From positions 124,001 to 188,000 of the forward strand of contig CDROCS010001301.1 in assembly GCA_977020255.1 (NCBI GenBank): a DNA stretch of 64,000 nucleotides, read 5' to 3'. The notes under the pieces are model-generated. The model was given only the letters and a program-made list of their open reading frames with translations, was not told where the DNA came from and did no database searches. The DNA is from Obrimoposthia wandeli. Taxonomy: Eukaryota. Shown one piece after another: positions 4,301-61,563 of this stretch. The position numbers were made by a program, and so were the translations under genes. Position 1 is the stretch's first letter; each line of letters begins with the position of its first letter.

Positions 4301-5405
4301 ATCCAGTGGTGGGATTCAAACTGTTTAGCAACCGGTGTCTGTAGTGGAACATTAATAATAAACTATATCATTGCGCTATTAGAGAATTCAATCATCAGTG
4401 TCGTGAATCGTCAGTGGTCGACCGGTCCACCCTAGTTTCTTGTTTATAACAACTAAACAATCGATTTTCCTACCCCAGGAAGATCATTATTCCTAACAAT
4501 TTCATACTCTTTATCTTGCAGATTTGCTTATCACAAGTTTCTTTCTGATTTCGGATCTTGAAAATTATCGCTTGCTGAACCTGATGCGAAATTATCATGG
4601 AGATTTTGAAAAAATCATTAAAACAAGACTTAATTATTATTGAGCTAATCTGTTGAAGAAATAATATATTATATAACAGTATCAATACATATTATAATAT
4701 CCCACTGATATAATTTATCTAAAATATATTTATCTAATTGTGTTCCTCTGAGTATTTTCTGGATTTACAGTCAAATCCTGTAATTTGACTTTTGTATACA
4801 GTCAATTTCTGTATATTTACTTAAACATTTTGTAAATATTAACAAATGCTTGTGTATTAACAAATCTTGTGGGAGAGTCTGTAAGATCGTAGGATGGTAG
4901 CCTTGAGACTTGTTAGTTTTTATTGTATTTTAACTAGTTATAAGACATTGTATAAAATTATGATTGATTAAATTTCAAAAAATAAAATTTGATTAATTTA
5001 ATTCGTATTAGTAACTTTTGACTTTGAATTTGAAATATTGTTAAACTTCTTCATACATATCCTTATCCGATTCTTCAAACATTTCCGAATCTTCGTCACC
5101 GCTTAATATCCGTTGGCTATCCTCCATCGTTGATAATATTCTTTGATATGAATGCATTTACTGTGATTTGTCCTCCAATGGCGCATTCTTTTATACTAAT
5201 TTCTAACAAAGACATAAATCTCATTGGTTAATATAACTAAAGCATTGAATTTGATTGGACTAAATCCATATTAAAAATCAAATTTGATTGGAAGAAATAT
5301 ATCATCCAATTATAATAGGTTTGCAAGATAATTACAAGAAATGTGCAATAAAAAGCAGGTTCAGACATATATAAAGAAGATTTTACAGAATACAATTTTA
5401 GTCTA

Positions 5406-5881
5406 ATGAAACTCGTAAATATAAATTATAAAGGTAGAACAGAAGATGATGTTTCGTACTTACCATTCAATGAATGGAAGCCGAGACAATATGTGGAAAG
5501 GTTTGACAATTTTACAGTTGTTATTTTTCCTACAGGTTAGTTTTTTTATTTTCATATTGAATTCTTTTAGGAAATTGTCGTGTTATGGGATGCAAAATAC
5601 CAATGCTTGGGTTCAACTTACCATTTGGAATTCGAATCACTGCAATACAATCAATCACGATTTCGGCTAATCTTGGGAAACATATAAATCTTTTTAAAAC
5701 TGCAGAGAAAATGAAAGAAGAATGCATGTTTGAACTAGAAATATTTCCTGCTCTCAGTTATTTGAAGTTTAAACTGCTATGTGTAAATATATTTTCCAGT
5801 GGTAAAGTTATGATATTGGGATTGAAAAATTTTGATTATCCAGACATTGTTGATTTGATTTTAGAAAATATATCTTATTAA
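5406..5881 (+). CDS. TBP-like protein of Polinton A (2 exons: 5406-5535, 5571-5881; 146 aa)
   Basis: Exon 1 MKLVNINYKG...FTVVIFPT; 35-nt intron gttag...ttttag (5536-5570, phase 1); exon 2 GNCRVMGCK...IQSITISANLGKHINL...MFELEIFPAL...CVNIFSSGKVMILGLK matches TBP repeat 2 (IQNIV...YEPELFPGL...LLIFVSGKVVLTGAK). Spliced frame is open. Confidence 0.85.
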
Positions 5882-5930
5882 ATCTTGTTATCTTTTCTAT
5901 AAACAAAACCGTTTAAACTTATTTTTTCAA

Positions 5931-6204
5931 ATGAAAAATACTATAAATAGAGACAATGAGGTGGATCGTCTTTCCGACGAAATATTTTCTGGTAAAATTT
6001 AGGGGTAAAGAAATTGTATCAGAATTAAAAAATAATGATATAACAAGAGATAACATTGAAATATTGATTAGATCACACGTTATTCGAGAATTTAGAAATC
6101 ATACACAAATAAATAAAATTATAGCCAAATATTCATTAATTAATTTGTGTATTTCATCTACAATAGCTCTAACATTGTACATTTCAATAAGGAAACTACT
6201 ATGA
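5931..6204 (+). pseudogene. Small protein with C-terminal hydrophobic tail (frameshifted copy of 23584-23865)
   Basis: MKNTINRDNEVDRL... shifts frame before GKEIVS; ends YSLINLCISSTIALTLYISIRKLL. Confidence 0.6.
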
Positions 6205-6241: not shown

Positions 6242-6892
6242 ATGGAGCTAAATAATAATGCTGAATTTCAAATAGCTGGTCCCAGTGGAAGTGGAAAGAC
6301 ACATTTCGTATGTATATTGTTGCAAAATGAATCTCTTTTCAAATCTAGTTTCAAAAATTTTTATTGGCATCATGGTGGAGAAGGGGAAAGCGGATTAACC
6401 AAAACAGAAATTTGCAAGTTGAAGGGAATAAAATTTATTGAAGGATTTCATGCAAATTAAAGTGTGAAAGATTGAAAAAAGAAGATGTAATAATAATTGA
6501 TGATTTGTATCAGGAAGCTAACAAGGAATCAAATTTTAATAATTTATTTACAAAGATTGCAAGAAATCGTGATGTAACAGTTATATTTATCACTCAAAAT
6601 CTTTTTCACCAAGGAGGTCACCATAGAACAAGAAATCTTAATGTACATTACTTAGTTTTATTTAAAAATCCTAGAAATCAAACAGTTGTAGATTTTGTGA
6701 CCAGACAGGCGTTTCCCCAAAAATAAGAACTTTCTAGTTGATTCATTCTATGATGTTGCTAAACAAGCATATGAGTATATATTTATTGACTTTACACAAG
6801 CTTGCCCAGATGATTTACGTGTTTTAACCGACATATTTAATTCTAAGGGAGTAACTGTTTATAAACAAATAGAGAACAATCATAAAAGATAA
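6242..6892 (+). pseudogene. Polinton packaging ATPase (A32/FtsK-like)
   Basis: Walker A GPSGSGKT, Walker B IIIDD, LFTKIARNR...FITQNLF...[17 protein letters not shown]. Stops and frameshifts at ~6460 and ~6725. Confidence 0.9.
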
Positions 6893-7422: not shown

Positions 7423-7641
7423 ATGGGTGCTAGCCCTTCTTTACCTAAACTTAAATTTTCTTTCTATTCAAATTGTTGTAATGGAGAAGATATGGCTCAA
7501 TCCAAAAGATCCAATTGGCTAAACAGGAGTTTCAAAATTAGTAAAAAGAATAAAACAAAATTACAAGAAAACGCAGAAATGGCTGAGCGATCAGTTAGCC
7601 TACAGTCTGAACAAGCCGATGAGAAGAAGGTTTCCAACTAG
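7423..7641 (+). CDS. Putative small ORF overprinted on the integrase 5' end (MG start, CC motif)
   Basis: MGASPSLPKLKFSFYSNCCNGEDMAQS...; same frame offset and CCNG motif in B (ATG 19234) and C (47451-47681). Confidence 0.6.
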   Translation: MGASPSLPKLKFSFYSNCCNGEDMAQSKRSNWLNRSFKISKKNKTKLQENAEMAERSVSLQSEQADEKKVSN

Positions 7642-8509
7642 AGCTTACAAAACCAGCGGTCTTAATAATTTATGGCAAATGGATTTGATGGAGATGATCC
7701 CATATTCTTCCATTAATAAGGGATATCGATATATTTTAACATGTATTGATGTATTTAGCAGGTTTGCTCGTGCAATTCCAGTTAAAGCAAAGTCTTCAAT
7801 AGCTATGCTTGAAGCCATTAAAGAAATATTAAAAGAGGACATTCCACAAAATGTGCAAACTGATTTAGGAAAAGAATTTTATAATAAGCAAGTTCAATCA
7901 TTATTAAAACAAAATAATATAAATCATTACTCAGTGTTTTCACAATACAAAGCAGCAGTAGTAGAAAGATCTAATCGTACTCTAAGAGATCGAATAAAAA
8001 AGTATTTCACAAAAGAAGGAAATAAAAAATGGATCCAAGTTTTACCTAAAATAATACATGCTTATAATCACTCTGAACATAGAGGTCTCAAGGGAATGAG
8101 ACCTGTTGATGTTACTAATAAAAGCTCTATGGACATTTGGATGAAGAGGAATAAAAAAGAAAAAATTAAAAAAGCTAAATATAAGAAAAACGAATATGTT
8201 CGAATTTCGAAAATTAGCTCTATTCCATTTATTAAAAACTTTGATCAGAATTGGAGCGATGAAATATTTTGTATAAGTAAAATTGATAAAAAGAGTAATC
8301 CAATAATGTATACTATTAAAGATGCTGACAATAATATCGTTCACGGTAAATTTTACGAGCAAGAACTACAAGTAATATCAAATAAACCTAGCGTTTTCCG
8401 TATTCAAAAAATATTAAAATCTAAGGGTACAGGTAAACATAAACAATCATTTGTTAAATGGCATGGTTATTCTGACCCAACTTGGATATCAGCATCTAAT
8501 ATAATATGA
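7481..8509 (+). pseudogene. Polinton retroviral-like integrase with C-terminal chromodomain-like motif
   Basis: WQMDL, LTCIDVFSRF, VQTDLGKEF, AAVVERSNRTL (DDE core) and VKWHGY tail. ATG at 7481 is in frame with ORF 7619-8509 but has a premature TAA at 7520-7522 (TAC in B). Confidence 0.92.
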
Positions 8510-12206: not shown

Positions 12207-13069
12207 CACATGTACCGACTGTACGATATCACCGCCCCTAAATCACTATATATGACTTTATGAATTATATCCAAAAAGTATTGTATAAGTGTTTATTTAA
12301 CTCAACACACAGTCAACAAAATATTAACAAACTACTACGGTTTTTCAAATAATTTATTTGAATAACACGCTCTCAATAGACGATGAAATATAGTTTGTCT
12401 AATGTTTGTAGGAGAAGGGGACCTATTTTCATTATTTTTCATAAAGATGGAGGCTTAGCTGTATGGATATATCTCCAGTACGCGCTGAAAGCCATCACCG
12501 TCGCAGTATATTACTTACTTAGTCAAGACTCGACAGTGGAAAGCCAAGGAGCAAGTCAAGAGCCGATGAGTGAACTTCTCGCCACTTCGACTCCAAGAGA
12601 ACCAGCAGCAAGAGGAAAATCCTAATATATAAGAAGAAACAAGAATGCCGTTTGAGACACCGACAAGGAAGAGAAACAACCTCTTTGATAACTATGAGGC
12701 GGACAAACGCCCATGGAAAAAGATCCATTTGTTTCAGCCGGCAACAGTTTAACTCCAGACTCCAACGTGGATCTCTCCGAAGAACCGATGGTGAATGATA
12801 CGAGTTTTGTGCCGGCGACTCAGAAGGAAAACTTGACTCATTTCATTGACGAATGGGATGGTGTGATTCATACTCTCCTGTCTGATATTGAAGCCCAAGA
12901 AATCAGCGAAAGTATTAGAGTCGAGTTTGACGATGATGATCTCACTCATTTCTTCGATGAGTGGAATAGTCTCACCACAAGTATCCCAATCCGTAGTAGT
13001 GCTCCAATCAGAAACAACTCCATCATTACTGAATTTATAGTAAATTTATCTCATTTAATGGTGTTTTTA

Positions 13070-13290
13070 GATTATCAGTTGAATCATCAACATGTTTATA
13101 AAATCCAGCTTTAGCTAAATCACTTTTAAATTGATTCCCTTTACAATTTAATAATATCAACATTAATCTTTTGCTTTCATGTTTATATTTCTTATATAAA
13201 ACATTCATTCTAGTATATTCTAATTTTCGTTTTACTAAAATGTCATTAAAAGTTCTATAATACCTTATATAGTCAACAAGCCTTTTCAAA
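13070..13290 (-). pseudogene. Truncated BIR/IAP gene
   Basis: LVDYIRYYRTFNDILVKRKLEY...[16 protein letters not shown] aligns with 45436-45650; cut off before the zinc-binding CxxC. Confidence 0.75.
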
Positions 13291-13349
13291 ATCAAATCTA
13301 AAACATATATTCGTTTTTAAAAAACTTTCAAGAAAATATACAGTAGAAT

Positions 13350-13780
13350 CAATTTAACAATGATAATAAAAATCTTTAATATCATGAATAATCACTTGTC
13401 CGCTAGTTAAAACTCATTAACACATAGAGGATTAAACTTTAAAATTCTGAGTAATGGAAACAATTCTGGTTCAAACATACAATTTCTTCCCATTTTCACT
13501 GATACCTTATACAAATTAACCTCCTTGTTGACTGAGATACTTAGAGATTGAATACGTTCAAATTATATATTTTTGACATATTTGATTGGCTGTTTGTTAC
13601 CCATAATACTATATGAACCTATAATAATAAAAATAGTAATAATAACACATGTTGGAAATATAACTATAGTATAATCCTTTTCAACCTTTGAACATATTGT
13701 ATAGGTTTATTTGATCAAAAGGGTAAGTGAATAACACTTCCCTTAACTTTATATTTATAATTTATTTTCTTTATTTTCAT
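13350..13780 (-). pseudogene. TBP-like pseudogene of Polinton D
   Basis: Reverse strand reads MKIKKINYKYKVKG...KPIQYV...YTIVIFPT | 30-nt GT-AG intron (13648-13619) | ...IERIQSLSISVN...[23 protein letters not shown]...SGQVII; several stops and frameshifts. Confidence 0.8.
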
Positions 13781-23884: not shown

Positions 23885-24384
23885 TTATAGAAAAGATAAC
23901 AAGATGTAATAAGATATATTTTCTAAAATCAAATCAACAATATCTGGATAGTCAAAAATTTTCAATCCCAATATCATAACTTTACCACTGGAAAATATAT
24001 TTACACATAGCGGTTTAAACTTCAAATAACTGAGAGCAGGAAAAATTTCTAGTTCAAACATGCATTCTTCTTTCATTTTCTCTGCAGTTTTAAAAAGATT
24101 TATCTGTTTCCCGAGATTAGCCGAAATCGTGATTTATTGTATTGCAGTGATTTGAATTCCAAATGGTAAATTGAACCCAAGCATTGGTATTTTGCATCCC
24201 ATAACACGACAATTTCCTAAAGAATTCAATATGAAAATAAAATAAAAAACTAACCTGTAGGAAAAATAACAACTGTGAAATTGTCAAACCTTTCTACATA
24301 TTGTCTTGGCTTCCATTCATTGAATGGTAAGTACGAAACATCATCTTCTGTTCTACCTTTATAATTTATATTTACGAGTTTCAT
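23885..24384 (-). pseudogene. TBP-like pseudogene of Polinton B
   Basis: Exon 1 24384-24255, 38-nt intron 24254-24217, exon 2 with TCA>TAA nonsense at IQ*IT; otherwise nearly identical to 5406-5881. Confidence 0.85.
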
Positions 24385-42600: not shown

Positions 42601-45600
42601 CATCAAAGTACCTACTTTGGACTGGTGAGCTAAATATATAATTTAGTTCTACAATATTATGTCTGAATGAATCGCATGTATGACAAAGAAATGATCATGT
42701 TCATGAGAATCTAGAAAGACATGTGGCAACGAGTCTCTGTATTATTTAAATGCGTTATTGTGCGGGATTATCAGATCACTTAATGAACTATTTATCATCA
42801 GTATGACATTATCTCGGTTAATTTCCCTTGATCAACAGCTTTAAAACGTTTCCCTAAAATAACTAAATCGCGCTTGCCATTACCGTAGAAAAATTCCTCG
42901 CCATTATTCCGCATCGTTCATTTTGTGATTTAACACACCAATTTACTTTTTTCACTCCAATATTATCGACAAATCAGTGCGAACCACTTCTCATCAGATC
43001 ACACGATTTAAACCGTGCTTCGTGCTTTATAGTCATTTTTACTTCAACAATTGGGCAACTTCTGATACATTAAATTTGATAATTCTGTTTCTTTCACGTT
43101 TGGAAATTATTTTGGTCCACCAGAAAATCTTTTGATACCAAACTTCGCAGAGTGCTACAGACAACTTCACGCAACTTGGAATTTTTCATTAAACAAAAAG
43201 CATAGCTGCCTTCCGGATTTCACTAAAATCGTTGTTTAGTGTGTCTACTTTTTAAAAATATGTTTTTCCTATTTTCATAATCAAAATTTCTAAAAGGTCG
43301 AATAAGTATGTTACAAATAACTAACTTGAATTTTACACAATACAAGCTATTTATTCCGCAGACTAATATTGTAGGCAATAATTGAAATGATAAAATTCCC
43401 ATGATACACTGACGAAATTCAGCTAAAATAGTTAATTGAAATGTTGAATAGAAAAAGTAGTGGTCAAATAATAATGTTACAGACCTGAAAGATTCTCAAA
43501 ATGTCTTCATGAGAATCCCTCTTATCTTCTAGCACACAAATGTACACACCAACCTCATGCACACAAGAAGTGTAAAGTGTCGGTTCTAAAACAATAGAAC
43601 ACAAAGCCCCCCCGAATTCGCTTAGTCATACAGATGTGCTTTGTTCCTTGTGCCTTGTTCGGGGGGGGGGGGCTTTGTTTTCTATATTTTTAGAACCGAC
43701 ACTTTACGTTTTGAAATTTGATTGGTCTTATGTGTCATTTACGATTATGTAGGTTAATATTCTGTAAACATTAAGTATATAGTTCTAAAATTCAAAAATT
43801 TAAAATTAAAAAATTAAATATGGAAATTAAAAAATTAAATATGGAAATTAAAAAATTAAATATTAATTTACAAATTTACAAATTAAAATTTTAAAAATAA
43901 AATTTTGAAATTAAACACAATTGACCGTCTAAAGTTTTTATTTGCAACTATTTAATTTACTTAGTACTGCGACCTCATTCCAGGAGTTAGACTGCCCCGC
44001 ATAACCGGACAGCTATCGCAGTTTTTATCTTAAGAAACGTTATTGTTTATAGTAGGAGTCTATGTTTATACATGATTATATAATGAAGAAAGCAAAGTAA
44101 CATAGATAAATATATATTAGCACAATTATAAGTGAACTTGTCCATCAGTAATTTTCCAGATTGGTTTATGAAGACTTGTACAGTTGATTTTGTATCCCTG
44201 TATTGAAATGACGATCATCCACTTGAGTCCAGTTCCTATATTGTCAACATTAAAGTCGTGATCTCGCTTGAAGAGATTAGGATCAGCTCGAATTATTATA
44301 TGATTCCCAACTATAATGTTGATATGCATCGACGCGAAAGTTGTGTTAAGATCATCAATATCTGACGGATTTAATCTATGTATCTTGAAATCGTATTTTG
44401 ACTTATTCAGAGCCACCGGAAACATGAATCCATATATGATTGGAGTCTTCAAAAAATTCATTTGCCAGTTATAAAACATAACCGGCTTGGTGTACTTCAA
44501 ATCGTTAGACTCAAATATTACACCTGATGGTCTATTGTTGATGAACGGTTTCTTATGTTTAGGTGTAGAAACTATATCATCAATAAAGAGATCCTCATTT
44601 GTTGCTTGCTTCTCAATCTTGATAGTCTTGGATTGTTTGTTGTTGCTTGTCATAGTTTGCTTCTTTGGTTTTGATATTAAAACTACATCATCATCGGTAT
44701 CCGCATCTGTGACTGTAAGCCTTGTTGGTGGCTTCTCGAACTTAAGAGATTTAGTTTGTTTAGAGTTCATATCAAAATAATGAATTCTATACCAAAAGTG
44801 GTAGCTTATATATATCATTATACTCGATTCTGATTGGTTAATCTTTAGCTTAAAAATTTTATATATAGATTGGGTTATTTCCATTAATTCAATCATGAAT
44901 CTTGCAAATATTAATTATAAAGGTAAAGTTAAAGGAAACATCAGTCAATTACCCTTCAAAGCCGGGAAACCATGTCAGTACGTGTACAGGTGTAAGGATT
45001 ATACCCTTATAATCTTCCGTTCAGGTATGTTTTTATGTTAGTTAGTTAGTTAATTATTATTATTATTAGGAGCATGCAGGATAATGGGTTGCAAGAAACC
45101 TATTACTACAACTATGCTCAAGTGTCCATTTAGAATAAAGATTGATCGTATTCAATCAGTAACGGTTACTGTCGATTTAGGTAAGAAGGTGAACCTATAC
45201 AAGTTGTCTCAAAAGCGTGGAGCTGCATGCATGTTCGAACCTGAATTGTTTCCTGCTTTGAGGTTTACAAAACACAATCCTCTGTGCGTCAACATATTTG
45301 CAAGCGGGAAAGTGGTCATACTCGGTCTCAAGGATTTGGATTATAACTTTGATGTGACTTTGATAATAACTGATATTTTACTTTTTATATAAACAATAAA
45401 TTTTAGTTGAATTTTTATTCTTACATGATTTGAAAATGCTAGTTGATTATATACTTCATTATACAACTGTTGATGATGTTTTAGTTAGACGAAAAGTAGA
45501 TTATTCTAGAATGAAAGTTTTACACTGGAAATATAGACGTGAAAGGGAAAGATTAAGATAATTAATTATAAATTTTAAAGGGAAACAATCTGTAAATGAT

Positions 45601-48600
45601 TTAGCTAAAGCCGGATTTTATAAACATGATGATGATTCAACCGATAAAGTAAAATGTATATACTGCCAAGGTGCGTTATCCGAATGGGAATGGTATCTTA
45701 AACCAATGAAGTAACATATGAAATTTTTTCCTACATGTCCATTTCTTTTAAAGTTAAATGTTTCAAATGTACCAATAATTGAAACTATGGACAAGAAAAT
45801 TGATTTTGATACATCACCATTGATTGGAAAAGTATATGTATCAGATATTGATATAAAATTACCTGATATATGCTATTCAAAATGTTTAGGACCCTATAAT
45901 GAGGCTAATGTTATTGAGAAAATCGAAACAGATTGTATAATTGAATATCCTTTGACTATAGAGAAATTCGATATGTTGATGGATACAAACCAAATCAGAT
46001 ATTTGAAAATGTTTTTCACAAAAGATTGTTTGCACCCATGTCTATAGAGATATCAAACGGAATAAGGATTTTGAAAAATTCATTCAAATTAATCGTTCAA
46101 ACATGATGTATATAACCTTTTCTGTGTCAATTTTTAATTCTCTGTTGTTGTATATATTAATAAAACGTATATAAACAATCGTTTCTTTTGATTTATTATT
46201 ATTGATGATGATAAAACTTAAAAATAACGCGGTTTACCAAATAGTAGGACCTAGTGGGAGTGGGAAAACACATTTTGTAACTAAATTACTTCAAAATAAA
46301 AACATGTTTAATCAAAAGTTTGGTAGAATATACTGGCATTACGGAGGTGTAGTGGAATCTGGTCTAACACGAACAGAATTAGGTAAATTGAAGGGTATTC
46401 ATTTTATTAATGATGTTGATAATAAATGGTCTGAGAGGTTAAATTCAGGAGATGTCATTGTAATTGATGACTTGTATGATGAAGCGAATAAAGAGTCGGG
46501 TTTTAATAACCTGTTTACCAAAATAGCTAGACATAGAAATGTTACAGTGATTTTTATCACTAAAAATCTCTTTCATCAAGGCGGTCAACACCGTACTCGG
46601 AATTTAAATGTACATTATCTAGTATTATTTAAAAATCCGCGAGTTCAAACGGTTATCGACTTTGTTGCCCGTCAAGCTTTCCCTTGCAATAAGCAATATT
46701 TGATTGACGCATTTCAAGATGCTACAACTAACCCTCATGGATACTTGTTTTTAGATTTTACACAGGAATGTCCAGACGATTTACGCGTGAGAACCGATAT
46801 TTTCAATAATGATTTTGTATATAAACAAAAGAAAAGCCTATCTACATGTTAATCATGTCATTTATGAAAGAAACAATGCCTAGTGGAGTTGGACCTAAAT
46901 GGAGACCGGGCGATAAATTACACGCTAATGATAACAAATTGATGCTAAAGAAGAATGCTCATATTAAAAATCTTATTAAATCAGTGCTTCAGCGTAAAGT
47001 AGTCGATGAATCATTAAAGAAATCGGTCAAGACAGTAAAGAGAAAACCTATAAAAAAGAAACCATTAAAGAAGAAGAAGAAACCTGTTAAGAAAACAGTT
47101 GGAAAGTCGGTTAAAAAGTCATTAAATATGTTATCAAAATCTATACTTCCCTACTTTCAGGCTTTAATCAAGGCTCCAAGAATATATAGATCACGTATTC
47201 TCAAGTCATTTCCACCCTTTGTTATTGATAAGTTGGTTGAAGTGTTGTTTAATATTACATAAGGTACTGTAAAAATCGGTAATCATAAACATAACCTTAG
47301 AAAACATCAAAAAGCTTTACTTGATTTAGTGAATACTAAAAGTAAAACTGGTAAACGTAGAGTAATTCTAAAACAAAAAGGTGGTTTTATCGGTGCATTA
47401 ATACCTATAATTGCTACTTTGATTGCAAAATTGATAAACCCATAAACAAAATAGGTAATAACATACCCAACATCGATTTTAAATTCACTTGTTGTAATGG
47501 AAACGATATGGTACGATCCCGAAAACTCAGCTGGGTACAGCGGCATTGGCAAACTATCATTAAAAAGTCAATCGAGTCAAAAGAAAACTCAGAAATGGCT
47601 GAGCAATCAGCTAGCATACAGTCTAAACAAGCCAATGAAGCGGAAGTTCCCGACTCGAGCATACAGAACAAGCGGTCCTAACGATTTATGGCAGGCCGAT
47701 TTGATGGAAATTATACCATATGCAAGTATCAATGATGGTAACGAGTATATTTTAACATGTATTGACGTGTTTACAAGGTATGCGCGTGCATTACCTGTAA
47801 AATCTAAATCAGGTAAGGATATAGAGGCTGCTCTAAGTATAATGATTGATAAAACTGTCCCCATACATGTGCAAACCGATAAGGGTAAAGAGTTTAACAA
47901 CAAAAATGTAGGTAGTTTATTTAAAAAATAAAATATTGTACATTACTCTGTAGTTTCACAATTCAAAGCTGCAGCAGTTGAAAGGTTTAATAGAACATTG
48001 AGAGATCGATTAAAAAGACATTTTATTGCACAAGGTAATAAAAGATGGGTTGAAGTTTTACCAAAAGTAATGACTTCATACAATCACAGTAAGCATAGAG
48101 GTTTAGACGGATTGAGACCTGTCGATATTAATGATAAAAATGCAATGGAAATTTGGCTGAGTCGTAATCAAGTCGATAAAGTTAATAAACCCAAACATAA
48201 GACTGGTGATTATGTTCGGATATCAAAGTTTAGTGGTAGCCCCTTTATTAAAAACTTTGATCAGAATTGGAGTGATGAGGTGTTTAGGATAGAGAAAATA
48301 GACAAACGTGCAAATCCTGTAATGTACTCTATAGTTGATGATGACTGTAATGTAATAACAAGGAAATTGTATGAACCTGAATTACAAGTAATTGATAAAC
48401 CTACACTTTTCCGTATCCAAGAAGTCGTACAATCTAAAGGCCGCGGTAAGAATAAACAATATCTCGTAAAGTGGCATGGATATTCTGAATCAACATGGAT
48501 CAAAGCAAGCCAGATAGAGACTTCTATATGATTTTACCGAGTAATAGTTATCCGAAAACTCAACCTAATAATATGGCTTCATTATTCACTGTAGATTGGG

Positions 48601-51600
48601 AGAATCCAATTACGTTAAATGGTAAATGGGAGGCGGCATATACAAACACTCCTGTTATTTTAAATAAGGGTAGTGAAATTAATTATTCTATTAAATTCTC
48701 CAATCAACAGACTGATCAAATATCTTTATCAGTAATTCATACTCAAGTAGAAGTAGAAAAGAAAGAACTGCAATTGCATGGTGATAAATCAGAACCAAAA
48801 GTTATTAAAAAGACAATTAATAAAATATCAAAACTCACCGTCTCGTTTAAAGATAAGATTGCAAAGCTTTCTATTTCCTTAATCACAGTTGGTGTAGGTA
48901 TTGATAAAAAGGATAATGTTGTACTAATAATATCCGTCAACAACAAAAAATTCTATATCAAGATGGATGCTGACGCTAAAAATGAATTAGGATTCATTTT
49001 CAATACATTAACTTCAGAAAGTTTCGAGTCTGATGATAAAGGAGTTTTACAAGGATCAACATCTATCAGACCTGATTGTGGTGCACATAATTTACAATAT
49101 ATGCATTATAAAACTGGTTCATACAACAAGAAAATTGTATTTACAGAAGATTTAAATAATAATAATGTAAATGCATTAGTAGCATACATTAAATCTAAAT
49201 GTGATGTCATATTTAAAAGATTTTATATGGATGATAATGATAAGCTAATAAAATTTGTATTAAAGAATGGAATTGAGCATATTGGATTTGATCAACGTTT
49301 AATGTATGTATTAGGGTTAGATAAATCACGATTTACAGTCAACGGGTCAGGTAAACCTCGATTAAATTACGAGTTTGATCACATGTACTTGTATTCTAGT
49401 CTGTGTGAACCTGTAAACGTTGGAGGTCAAATGATACCCTTATTAAAATCTATATGGTTAGATACAAATAAAGCACCATGAGACACGGTTAATATCGCAA
49501 TATACAGACCCATGTATATCCCTTTAGCATCAAATGTAATCTCAAACATTGAAATTAATATTAGAAACGATGCAGGTGTTCCAATAAGTTTTTCCAACAA
49601 TGCAAAAGTATCCCTTACCATACATGTCCGTTGTATAGATCAGGTATAAACAATCTGTATTCAAAAATAGTTGTCCATTACAGTTATGAATATAATTGAG
49701 ACATTTAGTGGGCCTCAACAAGGTGGTGAATTGCCATATTTTGTAGGTAAACAGTACGGTTCGGGATGGTTGAAAACATTGGGGCGGTTAGCATTCCCTA
49801 TACTGAAAAGATTAGGCCGTGTTGGAGTTAAAACAGTTCAAGATGTAATAATGAACAACAAATCTGTGTTACCAATGCTTAAACAACATGCACTAGGGGA
49901 AGTTGCCGGAGCCATACCGGAGGCTAAGGAAGCTTTTGGTACAGTTGTTAAAATTATTAAAAATCGACGTAAACGTAAAGCAAGTGAAGCAGCACAAACG
50001 GTTGAACCCGAAACTAAAAAGCAAGAGGGTAGTGGTAGAAAGAAAGCATCTAGTATAAACAAACGAAGAAAACAAGGTACAATATTTGCTTAATAATGGC
50101 TTGTGGTAAATCTGAATTATGTATTTTTGATCGAGCTTTGCCCCAGGTAGTTATAAATAATGGTAGCTTTGAAGATATATATCCAACAAACAATATTACC
50201 GGAACAAGAACAGCAGAGATTCTGTTTAAAATCCAAGGTTCAGATATTAAGTACTTAGATTTGAATGATACCTTGTTGTTTGTGAAAATTAAAGTAACGA
50301 AAACTGATGGTACAGAAATAGCTGTTGCAGATAATGTGGTCCCATCAAATTTCTTGATGCATTCCCTATTTAAAAGCATAGATATAACAATGAATAATAC
50401 TGTAGTAGAAACCCATCCTCAATATGCACAAAAAGCTATGATTGAAACCATACTAAACTATAGCACAGACACTAAAGACACTTGTTTGTCGAGTATAGGT
50501 TATGATGATACTGAAGATAGGTTGGGCTGCAGGAACCGACACTTTACACTTCTCACACAATCCACCTTTATCCAAATGAATCAAAATATAGACAAAGTGG
50601 GTTGAGTTAGTTAACTGAAGGTTGGCAGACGGGTCACACGGCTGGAATTTCCTTGCGGTGTGTGGTCCTCCCTTTTGCAGCAAATGGATCACCTTTTTCA
50701 GAAAGTGAATTATTTTAAAACTTAAGTTTCATTCTGATCGGGGTGATGTCGGCAATACAAACTCAGGGTTCCGTTTTGTAAAATAAAATAAAATTGTTCA
50801 TTTCTTATGTCTCTGAATCACATTAATCAAAATACGGACAAAATTAGGGGCTCCCCGGGGATTGTTGGAAATAATGCTGCAAAAGTGAAAATATGTTGTG
50901 TATGTTCTCAAGCATGCTGTGCTAGTTGTGTCATTTCCCTTCAAATGATGTCTCCCTCACCGCAACTCAGCTGCTTGCAAATGTGTGGCTGTTGTCATAA
51001 ACATTTTCCCTTTGACAGTTTTTGAATCTTGCTAAATAAAAATCAAAAAGTTGTCATATATAAGATGTAAACTATAAATGGAGATGACTATTACAAAATG
51101 CAACATCGTGTACCATCATAACATGTAACTTTATGCATACGTAAAAGGGTTAATAAACCACCCAATATCCATCTGATTGTCTGACGCTAATAATCAAACA
51201 ACATTACTTAATTAATTTCCAAAATATATTTAGACAATTATCGTCAATTTCTTTAGCAAATATTCTAGGAAATATTAACTATCCTTAATATGAAGTATAC
51301 AAGTGTGAGTTTTTAATATTACAATTTAATTCCGACACCCACGTAATGGAGTATATACTGTAGTGTAAAATGTATATAGGAAAATGTGAATTGATTATTT
51401 TGTGTGGAAAAGTGATTGTTTTATTATTTTTGTACAGAAATTCATCAGTATGGACAAAGACGGGGACAATGATAACACGGTATTCGACATTGTGGAGCCG
51501 CTCGGAAACTGCTCAAGCAGTTCTGAGATTTATGAAACAATCGGCAGCAGTGGGGGTAACAGTGTGTGCCTGAACATCTTCTCCAGTGGTACTACAGGAG

Positions 51601-57600: not shown

Positions 57601-60600
57601 AAAGTGTACGAATAAACATTTTGTAGCGGTTTTACATGTACATGAACCGTATAATCCCGTAGTTGTAGTCGGCATTTGCCACTCGCTCGATTATATCTCC
57701 GACGAACTTTCATCGATGCCTCTTCGGGGGTGGGGGGTCCCTATGTGCTGACACAACACATCTATCTACTATGACAAATGTCATCTGGGCGAGGGTAGCC
57801 TCAAACAACAGGTCACGTGGCAATTTTACAAGCTTTAGGGAGATTTCTTTGTTATTTTAATACTTTTTTATAATTTATATTAACATTTTTATTGAGGCTT
57901 TTAGCACATATTTTGCCATTTCACAGCACTTTTCTTCTGTGATTTAGAAATAAGTTTGTAAAATATAAAACTTTCTTCTAAATTGTTTGAAACAAGCCTC
58001 AACTGAAGCTTCTGGGACTATCTCTGGACCATTATTGTTTAGTAGAGACCCAGTTGCAAGTCATTGAAATGGTCAGGCTTTCGTCTGGAATGGCGTGAAC
58101 TGTTCAGGTGGTCATCATCGGATCATCTTCAATCAGTCTCTTCACAGCATCCCCATTATTTTCGACGATGCTGAAAATGCCTTCCACTGCGCGATTCATC
58201 ATAACAACCGACTCCTCTTTTGAATTATCTACCCTTGGAAGGTGAACTCCATCTTCAGATCGTTCATTGTCTTAAATGTCGACTTTATAAAACATTACAA
58301 CTACGCTTCGTTCTTACGAATCTCAATTTGTGCACAAACATGCTCATCGTCCTCATCGTCCTCATTTATGAATTTTTATTATTTACTTCTATATTTGGAC
58401 GTGAAATATATTTATCACTCCAGAATGTGTACTTTGATAAAGCGAGTTCCAAAGTCGCCAATTGGTATGAAAGGGTAAGAATCTTCAATCTGCCTGTGAC
58501 AAGAGGCTAAACATGCTAAACTCGGCATATTCCGTGCGGATGAATGGTTAGTGGATTCTATCCGGTTGACTGCGACATCGTGCAGGAGATGTGGGCTACT
58601 ACGACGAAGACCACTACCTCTACATATCGGACCGGATCAAGGAGTTGATCAAGGTGAAAGGGTTTCAGGTACGATTGAACCGAGTTTTGTCGTGGCTCAC
58701 CCAATGACCATAGTAATAATTAAATCGTGAAAAGTGAATGTAGGTCGAGGTCACATTTCTCCCGAGTACACATCATATTTGAAGGTCATTATCTACATTA
58801 GTACGTCTATTTTGGGGTCATTTTTTGTTTAAATGCATCTATTTTGGTGGGCGCATATTCAAATTTTGGTCGAATAAAGTAATGATTTTTTATTCCATAT
58901 GATTTTAAAGTCAAGGTCACCTATCATCATTATAAGTTATTTTGTTTTAATGCATTAATTTCGATGCGCGCAATTTCAAAACTTTTTCGCGTGAAAATAT
59001 ATGGTCTCAGAAACCTTTTCCAAGACTTATTTAAAGAAATTTAATTTACTTTTATTTGTGAGTTGAAAAGTTTTTTAAAATCTTATGGTATTTATTATAC
59101 ATAACTTACAATAGTTGTACTTATTTTATAAAAAGTTGCAATATAATTGAATTCAAAACTAGTCAATAAAATGAAGTTTTAAACTATGGTCAATTAGAAG
59201 AAGTTAATGTGAGGCATAAGATGGCTAGCACCATCGATGATAACAATCCAATTGAAGGGTTAACACCATCTATGATATTTCTTAATGAAGTAGATACTAA
59301 ATATATAGTTATAATAAGAGTTTGAAAATATGTACTCACATGACATTGAGAGAAACAAGAGTGAATTAAAACAAATATTGATAAAGAATAATATATATTA
59401 ATAAATACACCTTCATAATATCATCCTTCATTATAATAACATCGTAATCTTAATCTTCATGGTCATCATCCTTCATAATCATTACCACCATGTCTTCATA
59501 ATATCATCTTTCATTTTATTCATAATATCATCTTCTTTATCACAATCCTTCATCTTTTTCATCATCCTCATATAAAATAATTATTTTTTAAAAAATGAAA
59601 AACTTACCTGGAATTCTATACCCCCATCATTAATTCTCTAAAAATTACTCTCTATTTCATTGATTTCATATTTTACAAAATTAATTAGTTTAAACGCAAA
59701 TATTTTATTTAGAGCTTAATATTGTGAAATCAAATTCAAAAAAATAATATGTTAATTAGATATTTGAATTTTATTTTCCAATTAAATATTTGAATTTGAT
59801 ATTTAAGTTAGACATTTATATTTGATTATCAATTTGAGTACAATTTATCTCATAATTATTAATAATATTTCTGATATCAATACTGTGTATATTGGAAGTA
59901 ATTTTCTATGATTTCTGTCCATAAGTATTTTAAATAAATGTATACCTAATTTATTCAATATTTTAACACAATCAAATATACATAATTTCAATAAAGTTCT
60001 AATTTAGAGCATTTATTTATTACAGTCATAGTTTATTGGGACTTTTATTGACAATATTCTCGATAATACATCTCAATAATTTTACTAATTTATTTAACAA
60101 TATTTCATCATAAGCCTACTGCAAGACTGAAAATACACTTTCTAGAAGAAACTTATACGAAACAATATTTATCACGGTCACATAATGAAATCTTCAGTTG
60201 CATATTGAGATGTTAAACTGAAATTAACGAATTTTCATAGATCAATCATGAATATTCTACATGTTATTGATATATATTTAGTATATACTTCATTAAGAAA
60301 TATCATAGACGGTGTTAACCCTTCGAAATAGTAGGTACCTTGACTTTAAAAATCATATGTAATAAAAAAAATTAATTGAGAATGACATTCAGAAATCAAC
60401 CAAAATATACTAAAATCGACCAAAATTTGAATACGTGCCCACCAAAATTGATGCATTTCAACAAAAATTAGCCAAAATAGCCCATAATGACACTGAAATG
60501 ACCTTGAGATATCATGTGAACTCGAGAGAAATGTGACCTTGACCAACATTCGCCCTTACCAATGCGCTTCTGGAGGGTTTCTATGTAATTTGCCTTGAGT

Positions 60601-61563
60601 CGAAGTCATCACCTCCCACTACTGCCCATCAGCAGTATTGACGATGGTCTTCTGTGTCAGGTGGCCCCAGCTGAACTGGAGGGGTTCCTGCTGACCCACC
60701 CCGGCATCGCGGACTGTGGCGTGGTGGGGCTGCCTCACTCGGTATATGGGGAGGTGCCGCAGGCCTTTGTGGTGCGCAAGAAGGGTCACGATGCGGTGAC
60801 TGCGGAGGAGATACAGCGCTTTGTGACTGGTGAGATTGAATGGGAGCTCAGTATGGGCATGGGGGATGCAGCCAGGAATGAAAACACCGTATTTCTTTTG
60901 TTTACTACTGTCCAAGAGACGCTGATATAGCAGAGTCTGTTTATTTCTTCTGCCAGTTCACAACTACTGTAAACGATTGGGTCATCTGCTCAATCGATCA
61001 AATGAACCGCAACTGGAATTCACCGTGTGTGGGGGAATCAAGAGCTGCATCTTTTCACCAATGAAATATCTTGGGACAAATCGTGGGGGGAATTTACAAA
61101 TTGTGGAGTTGTTCAAATGCCATGAGCAGCCACGTGTCTCATTTAAAGAATTTCAGACAACTGTCGATTACTGGCGTGTGTCTCTCAATAGTAAAGCCTA
61201 CAAAACTTTCTCTCAATATAATATCCCTCGAGCACAATGAAAATTCTTTGATTGAAGCCAAAATAAAACATGAAATTTTAACAAAATATTTAATAAGCAA
61301 ATTTTGATATTGCATAATGACACTGAATATTTCCTGTTCCGCTTCTACACTTGTTTATGGCAATTCTACTGTAACTAAACCTTAACCGCTCCGTATCGTG
61401 GAGATGTATGGAGAGTCGTTAGTGTAATGTATGTAATCAATTTCCTGCTCCAGAAAGCCTCAGTGACCCGAAGCATTTGCGAGGCGGAGTCCAATTCCTC
61501 GATGCCATTCCAAAGTCCGCGAGCGGGAAAATTATGAGGAAGAACTTGAAGCAGCTGAAGTGA
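36664..61563 (+). CDS. 4-coumarate-CoA-ligase / firefly-luciferase-like acyl-CoA synthetase (~550 aa)
   Basis: Phase-compatible GT-AG exons: (36664-36684 tentative), 36724-36846, 37398-37608, 37731-37834, 51438-51658, 52551-52719, 53824-54007, 55027-55139, 55618-55765, 58586-58668, 60661-60829, 61454-61563. Motifs [86 protein letters not shown]. Confidence 0.92.
38400..38990 (+). mobile_element. Internally deleted mariner transposon remnant
   Basis: [21 protein letters not shown] (HTH-like) and [33 protein letters not shown] (mariner C-terminus); DDD core missing. Confidence 0.65.
39915..40410. repeat. 163-bp tandem repeat, ~3 copies (intronic)
   Basis: ttcaatctaactataattt at 39928, 40091 and 40254. 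Confidence 0.9.
42190..42616. mobile_element. Orphan Polinton-type terminus related to the 19859-22400 mini-element
   Basis: Ends gtctagactccatcaaagtacctact at 42616, the reverse complement of the 19859 end; ~99-bp subterminal repeats (42282, 42381). No partner end or TSD found. Confidence 0.75.
43572..43707. repeat. 136-bp foldback / MITE-like element
   Basis: ~45-bp inverted arms gtaaagtgtcggttctaaaa...aaagccccccc gaa / ttc ggggggg...ctttg...tttagaaccgacactttac; no TSD seen. Confidence 0.65.
44126..44770 (-). CDS. Conserved divergent Polinton gene, candidate OB-fold ssDNA-binding protein
   Basis: Open frame; likely ATG 44770 (MNSKQTK). Charged N-terminal half, then an aromatic, beta-strand-like domain ending [10 protein letters not shown]...[12 protein letters not shown]. 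Homologs at 13908-14396 and 25256-25660. The SSB call is inference. Confidence 0.6.
   Translation of the reverse strand: MNSKQTKSLKFEKPPTRLTVTDADTDDDVVLISKPKKQTMTSNNKQSKTIKIEKQATNEDLFIDDIVSTPKHKKPFINNRPSGVIFESNDLKYTKPVMFYNWQMNFLKTPIIYGFMFPVALNKSKYDFKIHRLNPSDIDDLNTTFASMHINIIVGNHIIIRADPNLFKRDHDFNVDNIGTGLKWMIVISIQGYKINCTSLHKPIWKITDGQVHL
44895..45392 (+). CDS. TBP-like protein of Polinton C (exons 44895-45024, 45070-45392; 150 aa)
   Basis: [10 protein letters not shown]...TLIIFRS | 45-nt intron gtatgt...attag | GACRIMGCK...[16 protein letters not shown]...[12 protein letters not shown]...[15 protein letters not shown]; spliced frame is open. Confidence 0.9.
45436..46047 (+). pseudogene. BIR-domain (IAP-like) protein
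   Basis: Single frame with two TAA stops: ERLR*...LAKAGFY...DKVKCIYC-x16-H-x6-C ([13 protein letters not shown]), the exact BIR CX2CX16HX6C spacing. No RING motif seen. Confidence 0.85.
46202..46852 (+). CDS. Polinton packaging ATPase (apparently intact)
   Basis: [43 protein letters not shown]; 216 aa open. Confidence 0.92.
   Translation: MMMIKLKNNAVYQIVGPSGSGKTHFVTKLLQNKNMFNQKFGRIYWHYGGVVESGLTRTELGKLKGIHFINDVDNKWSERLNSGDVIVIDDLYDEANKESGFNNLFTKIARHRNVTVIFITKNLFHQGGQHRTRNLNVHYLVLFKNPRVQTVIDFVARQAFPCNKQYLIDAFQDATTNPHGYLFLDFTQECPDDLRVRTDIFNNDFVYKQKKSLSTC
46846..47445 (+). pseudogene. Lys-rich basic Polinton protein ending QKGG plus hydrophobic helix
   Basis: ORF 46846-47262 continues in frame past one TAA to [24 protein letters not shown]. 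Confidence 0.7.
47451..47681 (+). pseudogene. Overprinted small ORF over the integrase 5' end (start ATA, probably a mutated ATG)
   Basis: (M)[22 protein letters not shown]...[17 protein letters not shown]; 76 codons without a stop, same frame offset as 7423-7641. Confidence 0.55.
47497..48531 (+). pseudogene. Polinton integrase (one premature stop at 47929-47931)
   Basis: [42 protein letters not shown]; ORFs 47497-47931 and 47998-48531 share a frame. Confidence 0.93.
48495..49649 (+). pseudogene. Polinton minor capsid protein (one premature TGA at 49479-49481)
   Basis: FYMILPSNS...[18 protein letters not shown]; [25 protein letters not shown]; the frame continues to YRPMYIPL...[10 protein letters not shown]...LTIHVR. 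Confidence 0.85.
49671..50093 (+). CDS. Conserved basic protein upstream of MCP (QQGG/QYGSG/QEGSG motifs)
   Basis: [33 protein letters not shown]; first ATG at 49686. Confidence 0.75.
   Translation: MSITVMNIIETFSGPQQGGELPYFVGKQYGSGWLKTLGRLAFPILKRLGRVGVKTVQDVIMNNKSVLPMLKQHALGEVAGAIPEAKEAFGTVVKIIKNRRKRKASEAAQTVEPETKKQEGSGRKKASSINKRRKQGTIFA
50096..50520 (+). pseudogene. Polinton major capsid protein, N-terminal third
   Basis: [12 protein letters not shown]...EDIYP...[24 protein letters not shown]...MHSLFKSI; homology to the MCP of B stops after IGYD. Confidence 0.88.
51709..52357. repeat. 16-bp minisatellite (~40 copies), intronic
   Basis: Unit cctcgatatgacacaa with variants such as tctcgatatgatgcag. 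Confidence 0.95.
56173..56867. mobile_element. pogo/Tigger-like non-autonomous element
   Basis: Imperfect TIRs TACAACCACTTCTCTTTTTATACGG and (reverse complement) TACACATAATTCTCTTTTTACATGG with TA at both ends. Confidence 0.5.
57310..57372 (+). mobile_element. Transposase C-terminal (hAT dimerisation-like) remnant
   Basis: [20 protein letters not shown] resembles the S..VER.FS motif; very short match. Confidence 0.35.
58731..60557. mobile_element. Non-autonomous element with ~200-bp imperfect TIRs
   Basis: 58731-58925 (gaatgtaggtcgaggtcacatttctcccgag...aaatgcatc...ggtggg...ttttggtcga...aaagtcaagg) is the inverted counterpart of ~60335-60557; AT-rich non-coding interior. Confidence 0.6.

Follow-up and report, generated by a model that had tools for sequence, protein, structure and literature searches.

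Known Maverick introns, as far as the available texts describe them, sit in cargo genes derived from hosts, and core genes are said to lack them. According to the available text of PMC8097293, introns are absent from intact vertebrate Mavericks, and nematode Mavericks combine intronless core genes with intron-bearing cargo of host origin, i.e., the wasp proteases and krma kinases (10.1101/2022.07.12.499685, in the part available). The elements of Obrimoposthia wandeli analysed here resemble the vertebrate Maverick/Polinton (adintovirus) set, as given in the same portion of PMC8097293, in having a protein-primed DNA polymerase (pPolB), a retroviral-type integrase (rve) with a chromodomain, an A32-like ATPase, a putative DJR capsid protein and terminal inverted repeats. 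Unlike the vertebrate elements, they encode a TBP-like protein, and one of their genes bears a predicted intron. With nematode Mavericks they share spliceosomal introns within Maverick-borne genes (predicted in O. wandeli); in contrast to the nematode cargo described in that available part, the gene concerned is a long-standing gene of the element and its intron is unmatched in host paralogues.

Two groups of viruses also invite comparison. TBP is a map label for some MELD viruses, for which the available text of Starrett et al. mentions no intron (PMC8502044, 10.1101/697771). Like MELD viruses and large dsDNA viruses (PMC7221094, available text), the O. wandeli elements place a viral TBP homologue beside replication and virion genes, but their protein has only about 145 aa and its gene a predicted intron. 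Spliceosomal introns are reported in mirusviruses, pandoraviruses and some chloroviruses (PMC12768974, in the part available), where, as here, the introns are of GT-AG type, are taken as a sign of nuclear transcription and show patchy gain and loss among relatives. According to that text, these are large protist viruses with many introns per genome and a length peak near 80 nt, whereas O. wandeli has one predicted intron of about 38 nt in an integrating animal element. The available portions of PMC10748475, PMC11131425 and PMC12220804 contain nothing on spliceosomal introns in element genes. Among main texts, we found no report of an intron in a Polinton TBP-like gene, although the genomes annotated for PMC8502044 may include genes of this kind.

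Here we describe a short, putatively spliceosomal GT-AG intron in the approximately 145-aa TBP-like gene of O. wandeli Mavericks, which was probably gained in a sub-lineage of the elements and not inherited from a host TBP. The intron can be mapped onto a tree whose ancestral state is intronless, and its gene exists in thousands of copies in the genome; it would thus be one of the few cases in which the gain of an intron by a virus-like element can be traced.

The window, that is, the whole stretch of 64 kb that was analysed, comes from the 1.35-Gb assembly GCA_977020255.1 (contig CDROCS010001301.1, forward-strand positions 124,001-188,000); positions below are counted within it. As predicted from their gene content, the elements that host the gene are Maverick/Polinton elements, with the TBP-like gene upstream of the genes for the A32-like ATPase, rve/chromo integrase and capsid. 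Protein-primed PolB (PF03175) was matched with E 4.7e-27 (L102) and 2.3e-18 (L105), rve with E 3e-12, and the Pox_A32 ATPase with E 1e-6 to 5e-6; the capsid match was weak (DJR-like, E 0.002), and a protease-like ORF had no Pfam match. Terminal inverted repeats lay approximately 16 kb apart around a family-A copy (L101/L102) and approximately 15 kb apart around a family-E copy (L106/L107), and were unseen in the other four of the six copies tested. Within the window, Pfam matches located a retroviral-type integrase in the first family-A element (A1; 7523..8509, + strand) and, in the family-B element, the packaging ATPase (46175..46852, +; homologous stretch in A1 at 6248-6841), the integrase with chromodomain in two ORFs (47455..48531, +) and pieces of the major capsid protein (49671..50605, +; Capsid_N, weak, E 0.0068).

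Several other features of these elements were observed. PolB is upstream of the TBP-like gene and divergent from it in family D (L092/L098), and downstream in families A, B and E (L102, L105 and L106). Directly 3' of the family-B TBP-like gene is a BIR (inhibitor-of-apoptosis) gene (45435-46047, +), which also occurs at L104:5870-6409 (PF00653, E 4.9e-14), and a homologous stretch follows the family-C copy (13065-13290). Furthermore, members of a small gene family ending in P[IML]W, without a Pfam match, often occur as two copies near the TBP-like gene, e.g., L101:4157-5170 (-), L195:1788-2135 and L092:5307-5795.

The TBP-like protein scored above the Pfam cut-off for PF00352 and is predicted to adopt the TBP saddle fold. 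The AlphaFold model of a relative (P0003, pLDDT 96.5) matched TBP structures in Foldseek with E 6e-10 and TM 0.67-0.77; the long helices of repeat 1 are missing from it. A TBP-like gene of approximately 145-170 aa was also regularly found upstream of the ATPase gene in many Mavericks from unrelated samples (L192-L271). Save for one weak match, no relatives were found in the phage collection or viral contigs. This mini-TBP of Mavericks seems little described, and our results point to a widespread, barely described mini-TBP of animal Polintons.

An earlier note on this DNA had placed four GT-AG intervals at one site of the TBP-like gene, in phase 1 within the Gly codon of the IFxxG motif, after codon 43 in the three colinear copies. 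The four intervals are indeed bounded by GT and AG, with lengths of 35, 38, 45 and 30 nt, and excision restores the frame in three of the copies. In A1, exon 1 (5406..5535, +; 43 codons plus 1 nt) is followed by the predicted intron of 35 nt (5536..5570) and by exon 2 with the TBP domain (5571..5881; PF00352, E 1.8e-10). The second family-A copy, on the minus strand, consists of exon 1 (24255..24384), a predicted intron of 38 nt (24217..24254) and exon 2 with an in-frame stop (23885..24216). The family-B copy comprises exon 1 (44895..45024, +), a microsatellite-like predicted intron of 45 nt with in-frame stops (45025..45069) and exon 2 (45070..45392; PF00352, E 3.2e-13). The family-C copy (minus strand) retains a GT..AG interval of 30 nt (13619..13648), but its exon 1 is degraded and out of frame (13649..13780), its exon 2 is degraded and carries stops (13330..13618, approximate end), and the split codon encodes Cys.

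Every possible cut of 20-150 nt around the site with a GT or GC donor and an AG acceptor was scored with an HMM built from 36 outside proteins. The predicted cut was best in A1 (177.3 bits vs 120.8 unspliced), in the second family-A copy (176.8 vs 122.6) and in the family-B copy (200.7 vs 179.0, with a runner-up at 192.4). Because the HMM preferred another cut in the family-C copy, its interval was assigned by homology to 25 family-C copies with the canonical site. The two family-A copies are 95% identical across 1559 nt, and the window therefore shows three families, not four independent cases. Genome-wide, the exact family-A donor junction occurred 7,517 times and its reversed control 0 times, which rules against chance.

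Copies across the genome were collected from 175 gene matches, of which 10 without the anchor motif were excluded, and duplicate loci were then removed, as were copies whose splice sites had mutated. Eighty-eight copies were called at the canonical site (family A, 32; B, 29; C, 25; E, 2), all at the same position, with a GT donor, an AG acceptor and a frame restored on removal, as expected of a U2-type intron. Donors read GTTAGT, GTATGT, GTATTA or GTAATT and acceptors end in TTAG or TAAG, resembling the motifs of predicted host introns; exon 1 of family E ends in TG or TT, not AG. Between families, the interiors are unrelated low-complexity AT repeats that slip in length, from 26 to 71 nt in family C, with the GT and AG kept. 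Most element introns measure 35-45 nt, with a mode of 38 nt in family A, where 35 and 38 nt are commonest. We suppose that the interior drifts freely and is probably near-neutral.

In the O. wandeli genome, families A, B, C and E carry the intron; in D1, D2, G and H, the gene is a continuous ORF in every copy (42 of 42). Outside O. wandeli, we inspected the 80 top-ranked loci among 172 confirmed in metagenomes, a ranking that favours uninterrupted genes. The motif was uninterrupted in 74 of these and, on inspection, in 4 more, and one did not cover the site. Thus 78 of the 79 informative loci among the best 80 of 172 are intronless, a count that overstates independence because several contigs are near-duplicates. 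The exception, L242, belongs to a contig with a full Maverick gene set and carries a GT-AG intron of 40 nt in exactly this codon; its match, which covers exon 2 only, reached E 4e-28, far above the cut-off of 8e-16. Among database proteins, 94 of 151 checked (P0001-P0151) run uninterrupted through the motif, but these were left out of the intronless tally, as they may derive from RNA. Some proteins start at a Met immediately downstream of the site; the idea that they betray hidden introns was dropped, as P0070 matches the uninterrupted L239. In families A and E, no intron was found in the small conserved gene neighbouring the TBP-like gene.

In the tree of the TBP-like gene (40 rows, 156 columns), the sequences of families A, B, C and E group together (96/87), surrounded by intronless genes. 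The intron is accordingly older than the split of these four families, as the earlier note had proposed; the proposal fails beyond them, given the four intronless sister families and the 78 of 79 informative outside relatives. L242 lies apart from this group, and two changes are needed. Nevertheless, a single clade of all intron-bearing genes was not rejected, either for the TBP-like gene (AU p 0.41) or with the ATPase added (AU p 0.17). Core genes gave a different picture. In the tree of ATPase, integrase and penton, all eight O. wandeli families group together (92/99), E is sister to the intronless D (100/100), and A+B+C+E is rejected (AU p 0.0006), so that a single gain requires module exchange or losses. 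Single-gene trees traced the E+D link to the penton-like gene, and the ATPase tree joins D with G/H (92/92 with the TBP-like gene added). The TBP+ATPase tree leaves the intron families unresolved, and a quick protein tree separates intron-bearing from intronless O. wandeli families with only 70% support. These conflicts between single-gene trees point to module exchange between families.

We favour a gain within the element lineage over ancestral presence. The intron may have arisen once, at a G|G proto-splice site, and may then have moved between families together with the TBP-like/ATPase module. A variant of this reading, which we consider unlikely, is that Polintons of the clade carry their own minimal TBP, a putative conserved transcription factor, and that a spliceosomal mini-intron was gained twice independently at the same codon, once in the O. 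wandeli elements and once in the lineage of L242. If true, this viral gene would contain a hotspot at which introns are gained, and the intron would tie the element's transcription factor to hosts able to splice introns of about 38 nt.

The intron could instead be older than the radiation in the host lineage, i.e., have been present before the separation of L242 or at the base of the eight families, with loss in D, G/H and many outside lineages; this is rather improbable. It would account for the identical site in L242, fits with the unrejected clade of all intron-bearing genes and with the position of E beside the intronless D within the clade of eight families; the proto-splice junction of D1 at the intron site, which is perfect (ACAG|GT), also speaks for it. 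However, an element that replicates as DNA would have had to lose the intron precisely several times over, and precise loss was unseen among at least 7,517 family-A copies. The distant outgroup is also intronless, as are nearly all the metagenome loci counted above.

That the interval is removed by splicing is inferred from sequence. Under a contrary reading it is unspliced, either as a shared inactivating insertion or as a segment bypassed through recoding. Such a reading could draw on the low-complexity AT repeats and the length slippage in family C. In four runs of unrecorded kind from one sample, the join of 5535 to 5571 was absent among the joints listed, which is neutral on splicing. On the other hand, translation through the interval would be frameshifted in 65 of the 88 copies and stopped in 21, and stays open in 2. 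Purifying selection acts on both exons: comparisons of intron-bearing families give pN of 0.22-0.37 against pS of 0.57-0.87, with synonymous sites near saturation, so the gene remained functional while carrying the interval. The GT..AG ends were retained in five lineages with differing interiors. Moreover, every residue class modulo 3 occurs among the interval lengths, which one kind of recoding could not explain. We therefore regard the unspliced reading as very improbable, and the interval is very probably an intron.

Under the preferred reading of a spliced intron, host Pol II would transcribe the TBP-like gene in the nucleus and the major spliceosome would remove the interval. The product would be a compact protein with the TBP fold, probably used in transcription of the element itself. 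Predicted splicing thus supports nuclear, host-spliceosome-dependent expression of a Polinton gene, and annotation based only on ORFs truncates the TBP-like gene. Upstream of A1 lies a predicted promoter-like region (5223..5375, +) with four CCAAT/ATTGG boxes and a TATAAA motif; related family-A copies have 4 and 3 CCAAT boxes per 200 nt vs approximately 0.3 in shuffles. A link between these boxes and the intron was considered and discarded: they are present in A, B, C and H, and absent in E, D1, G and L242.

Mavericks replicate through DNA, without a reverse-transcribed intermediate. The intron may persist for this reason, as no such intermediate would purge it. In keeping with this mode of replication, spliced junctions are nearly absent from the genome: a spliced-junction search for clean intronless copies returned a single match for family A, where donor junctions number 7,517, and none for family B. 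In the family-A match (L171, G000:C2335:184109-184133), exon 1 runs directly into exon 2, after which come a short insert of templated appearance and the former acceptor. The arrangement resembles a scar of end-joining repair with extra bases inserted, a near-miss of intron loss by DNA repair and not a clean loss.

An origin of the intron as the insertion of an introner, an intron-generating transposon, appears highly improbable. Introners have been found in dinoflagellate Maverick-like elements (PMC11957031, in the part available), but the family-A intron gave 13 matches away from its normal exon flank, and all 12 inspected were mutated copies of the element. The family-A intron was therefore not found outside the element and shows no sign of an introner, a result that covers family A and that an old, decayed introner would escape.

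Host introns were sampled by spliced alignment at 37 Ras-family loci, 20 of which were chosen for close exons, which makes the sample biased and suited to a presence test, not to a distribution. Of 32 introns that passed the filter, 13 were shorter than 55 nt and 10 of these were credible (39-53 nt); short calls of 20, 33 and 39 nt (L341, L335 and L349) are probably coding insertions or artefacts and were set aside. Introns of 47 and 48 nt are present in the two host TBP genes. The predicted introns of 39-53 nt in Ras and TBP genes indicate that the host possesses a short-intron class, at the lower edge of which the element introns fall in this small sample chosen for close exons. The commonest family-A lengths, 35 and 38 nt, are slightly below the smallest credible host intron of this biased sample (39 nt), which weighs against the intron reading. 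The earlier note had concluded that the gene depends on nuclear Pol II expression in a host able to splice introns of 30-45 nt. Host introns of 39-53 nt fit nuclear Pol II expression, but no credible host intron below 39 nt was found in the Ras-family and TBP sample, and the 30-nt example comes from a dead copy.

That note had also proposed that an intron position shared with host TBP/TRF genes would indicate capture from genomic DNA. Host TBP introns sit at other positions, before YEPE (phase 2) and within the last Gly of repeat 2, and the homologous motif is uninterrupted in either repeat and in TRF-like genes. Arrival of the intron with a gene captured from host TBP/TRF DNA, for which the intron-containing host-derived cargo of nematode Mavericks (10.1101/2022.07.12.499685, available text) would be a precedent, is thus already contradicted for the O. 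wandeli host and hardly credible, the more so as many outside elements possess the gene as a conserved part of the Maverick, located upstream of the ATPase and free of the intron.

Two divergent host TBP paralogues are arranged head-to-head within approximately 1 kb (L031/L032, G000:C238:871798-874002), and TRF-like genes occur elsewhere, intronless at L034 and L035 and intron-bearing on C968. In RPB2, the host is 66-69% identical to many phyla, which places it no more closely than as a divergent animal. Several intron-poor RPB2 paralogues were also seen (G000:C401, C197, C2497, C309 and C11), and bacterial-type ORFs of rpoB length on other contigs suggest contamination in the assembly. Within the window, C>T and G>A changes dominate copy-to-copy variation at 5200-6200, as expected of methylation-linked decay. 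A bZIP ORF is present at 993-1844, and host acyl-CoA-synthetase-like exons (AMP-binding_C) are found at 58586-58669 and 60662-60831 (+), with a 2-kb intron between them.
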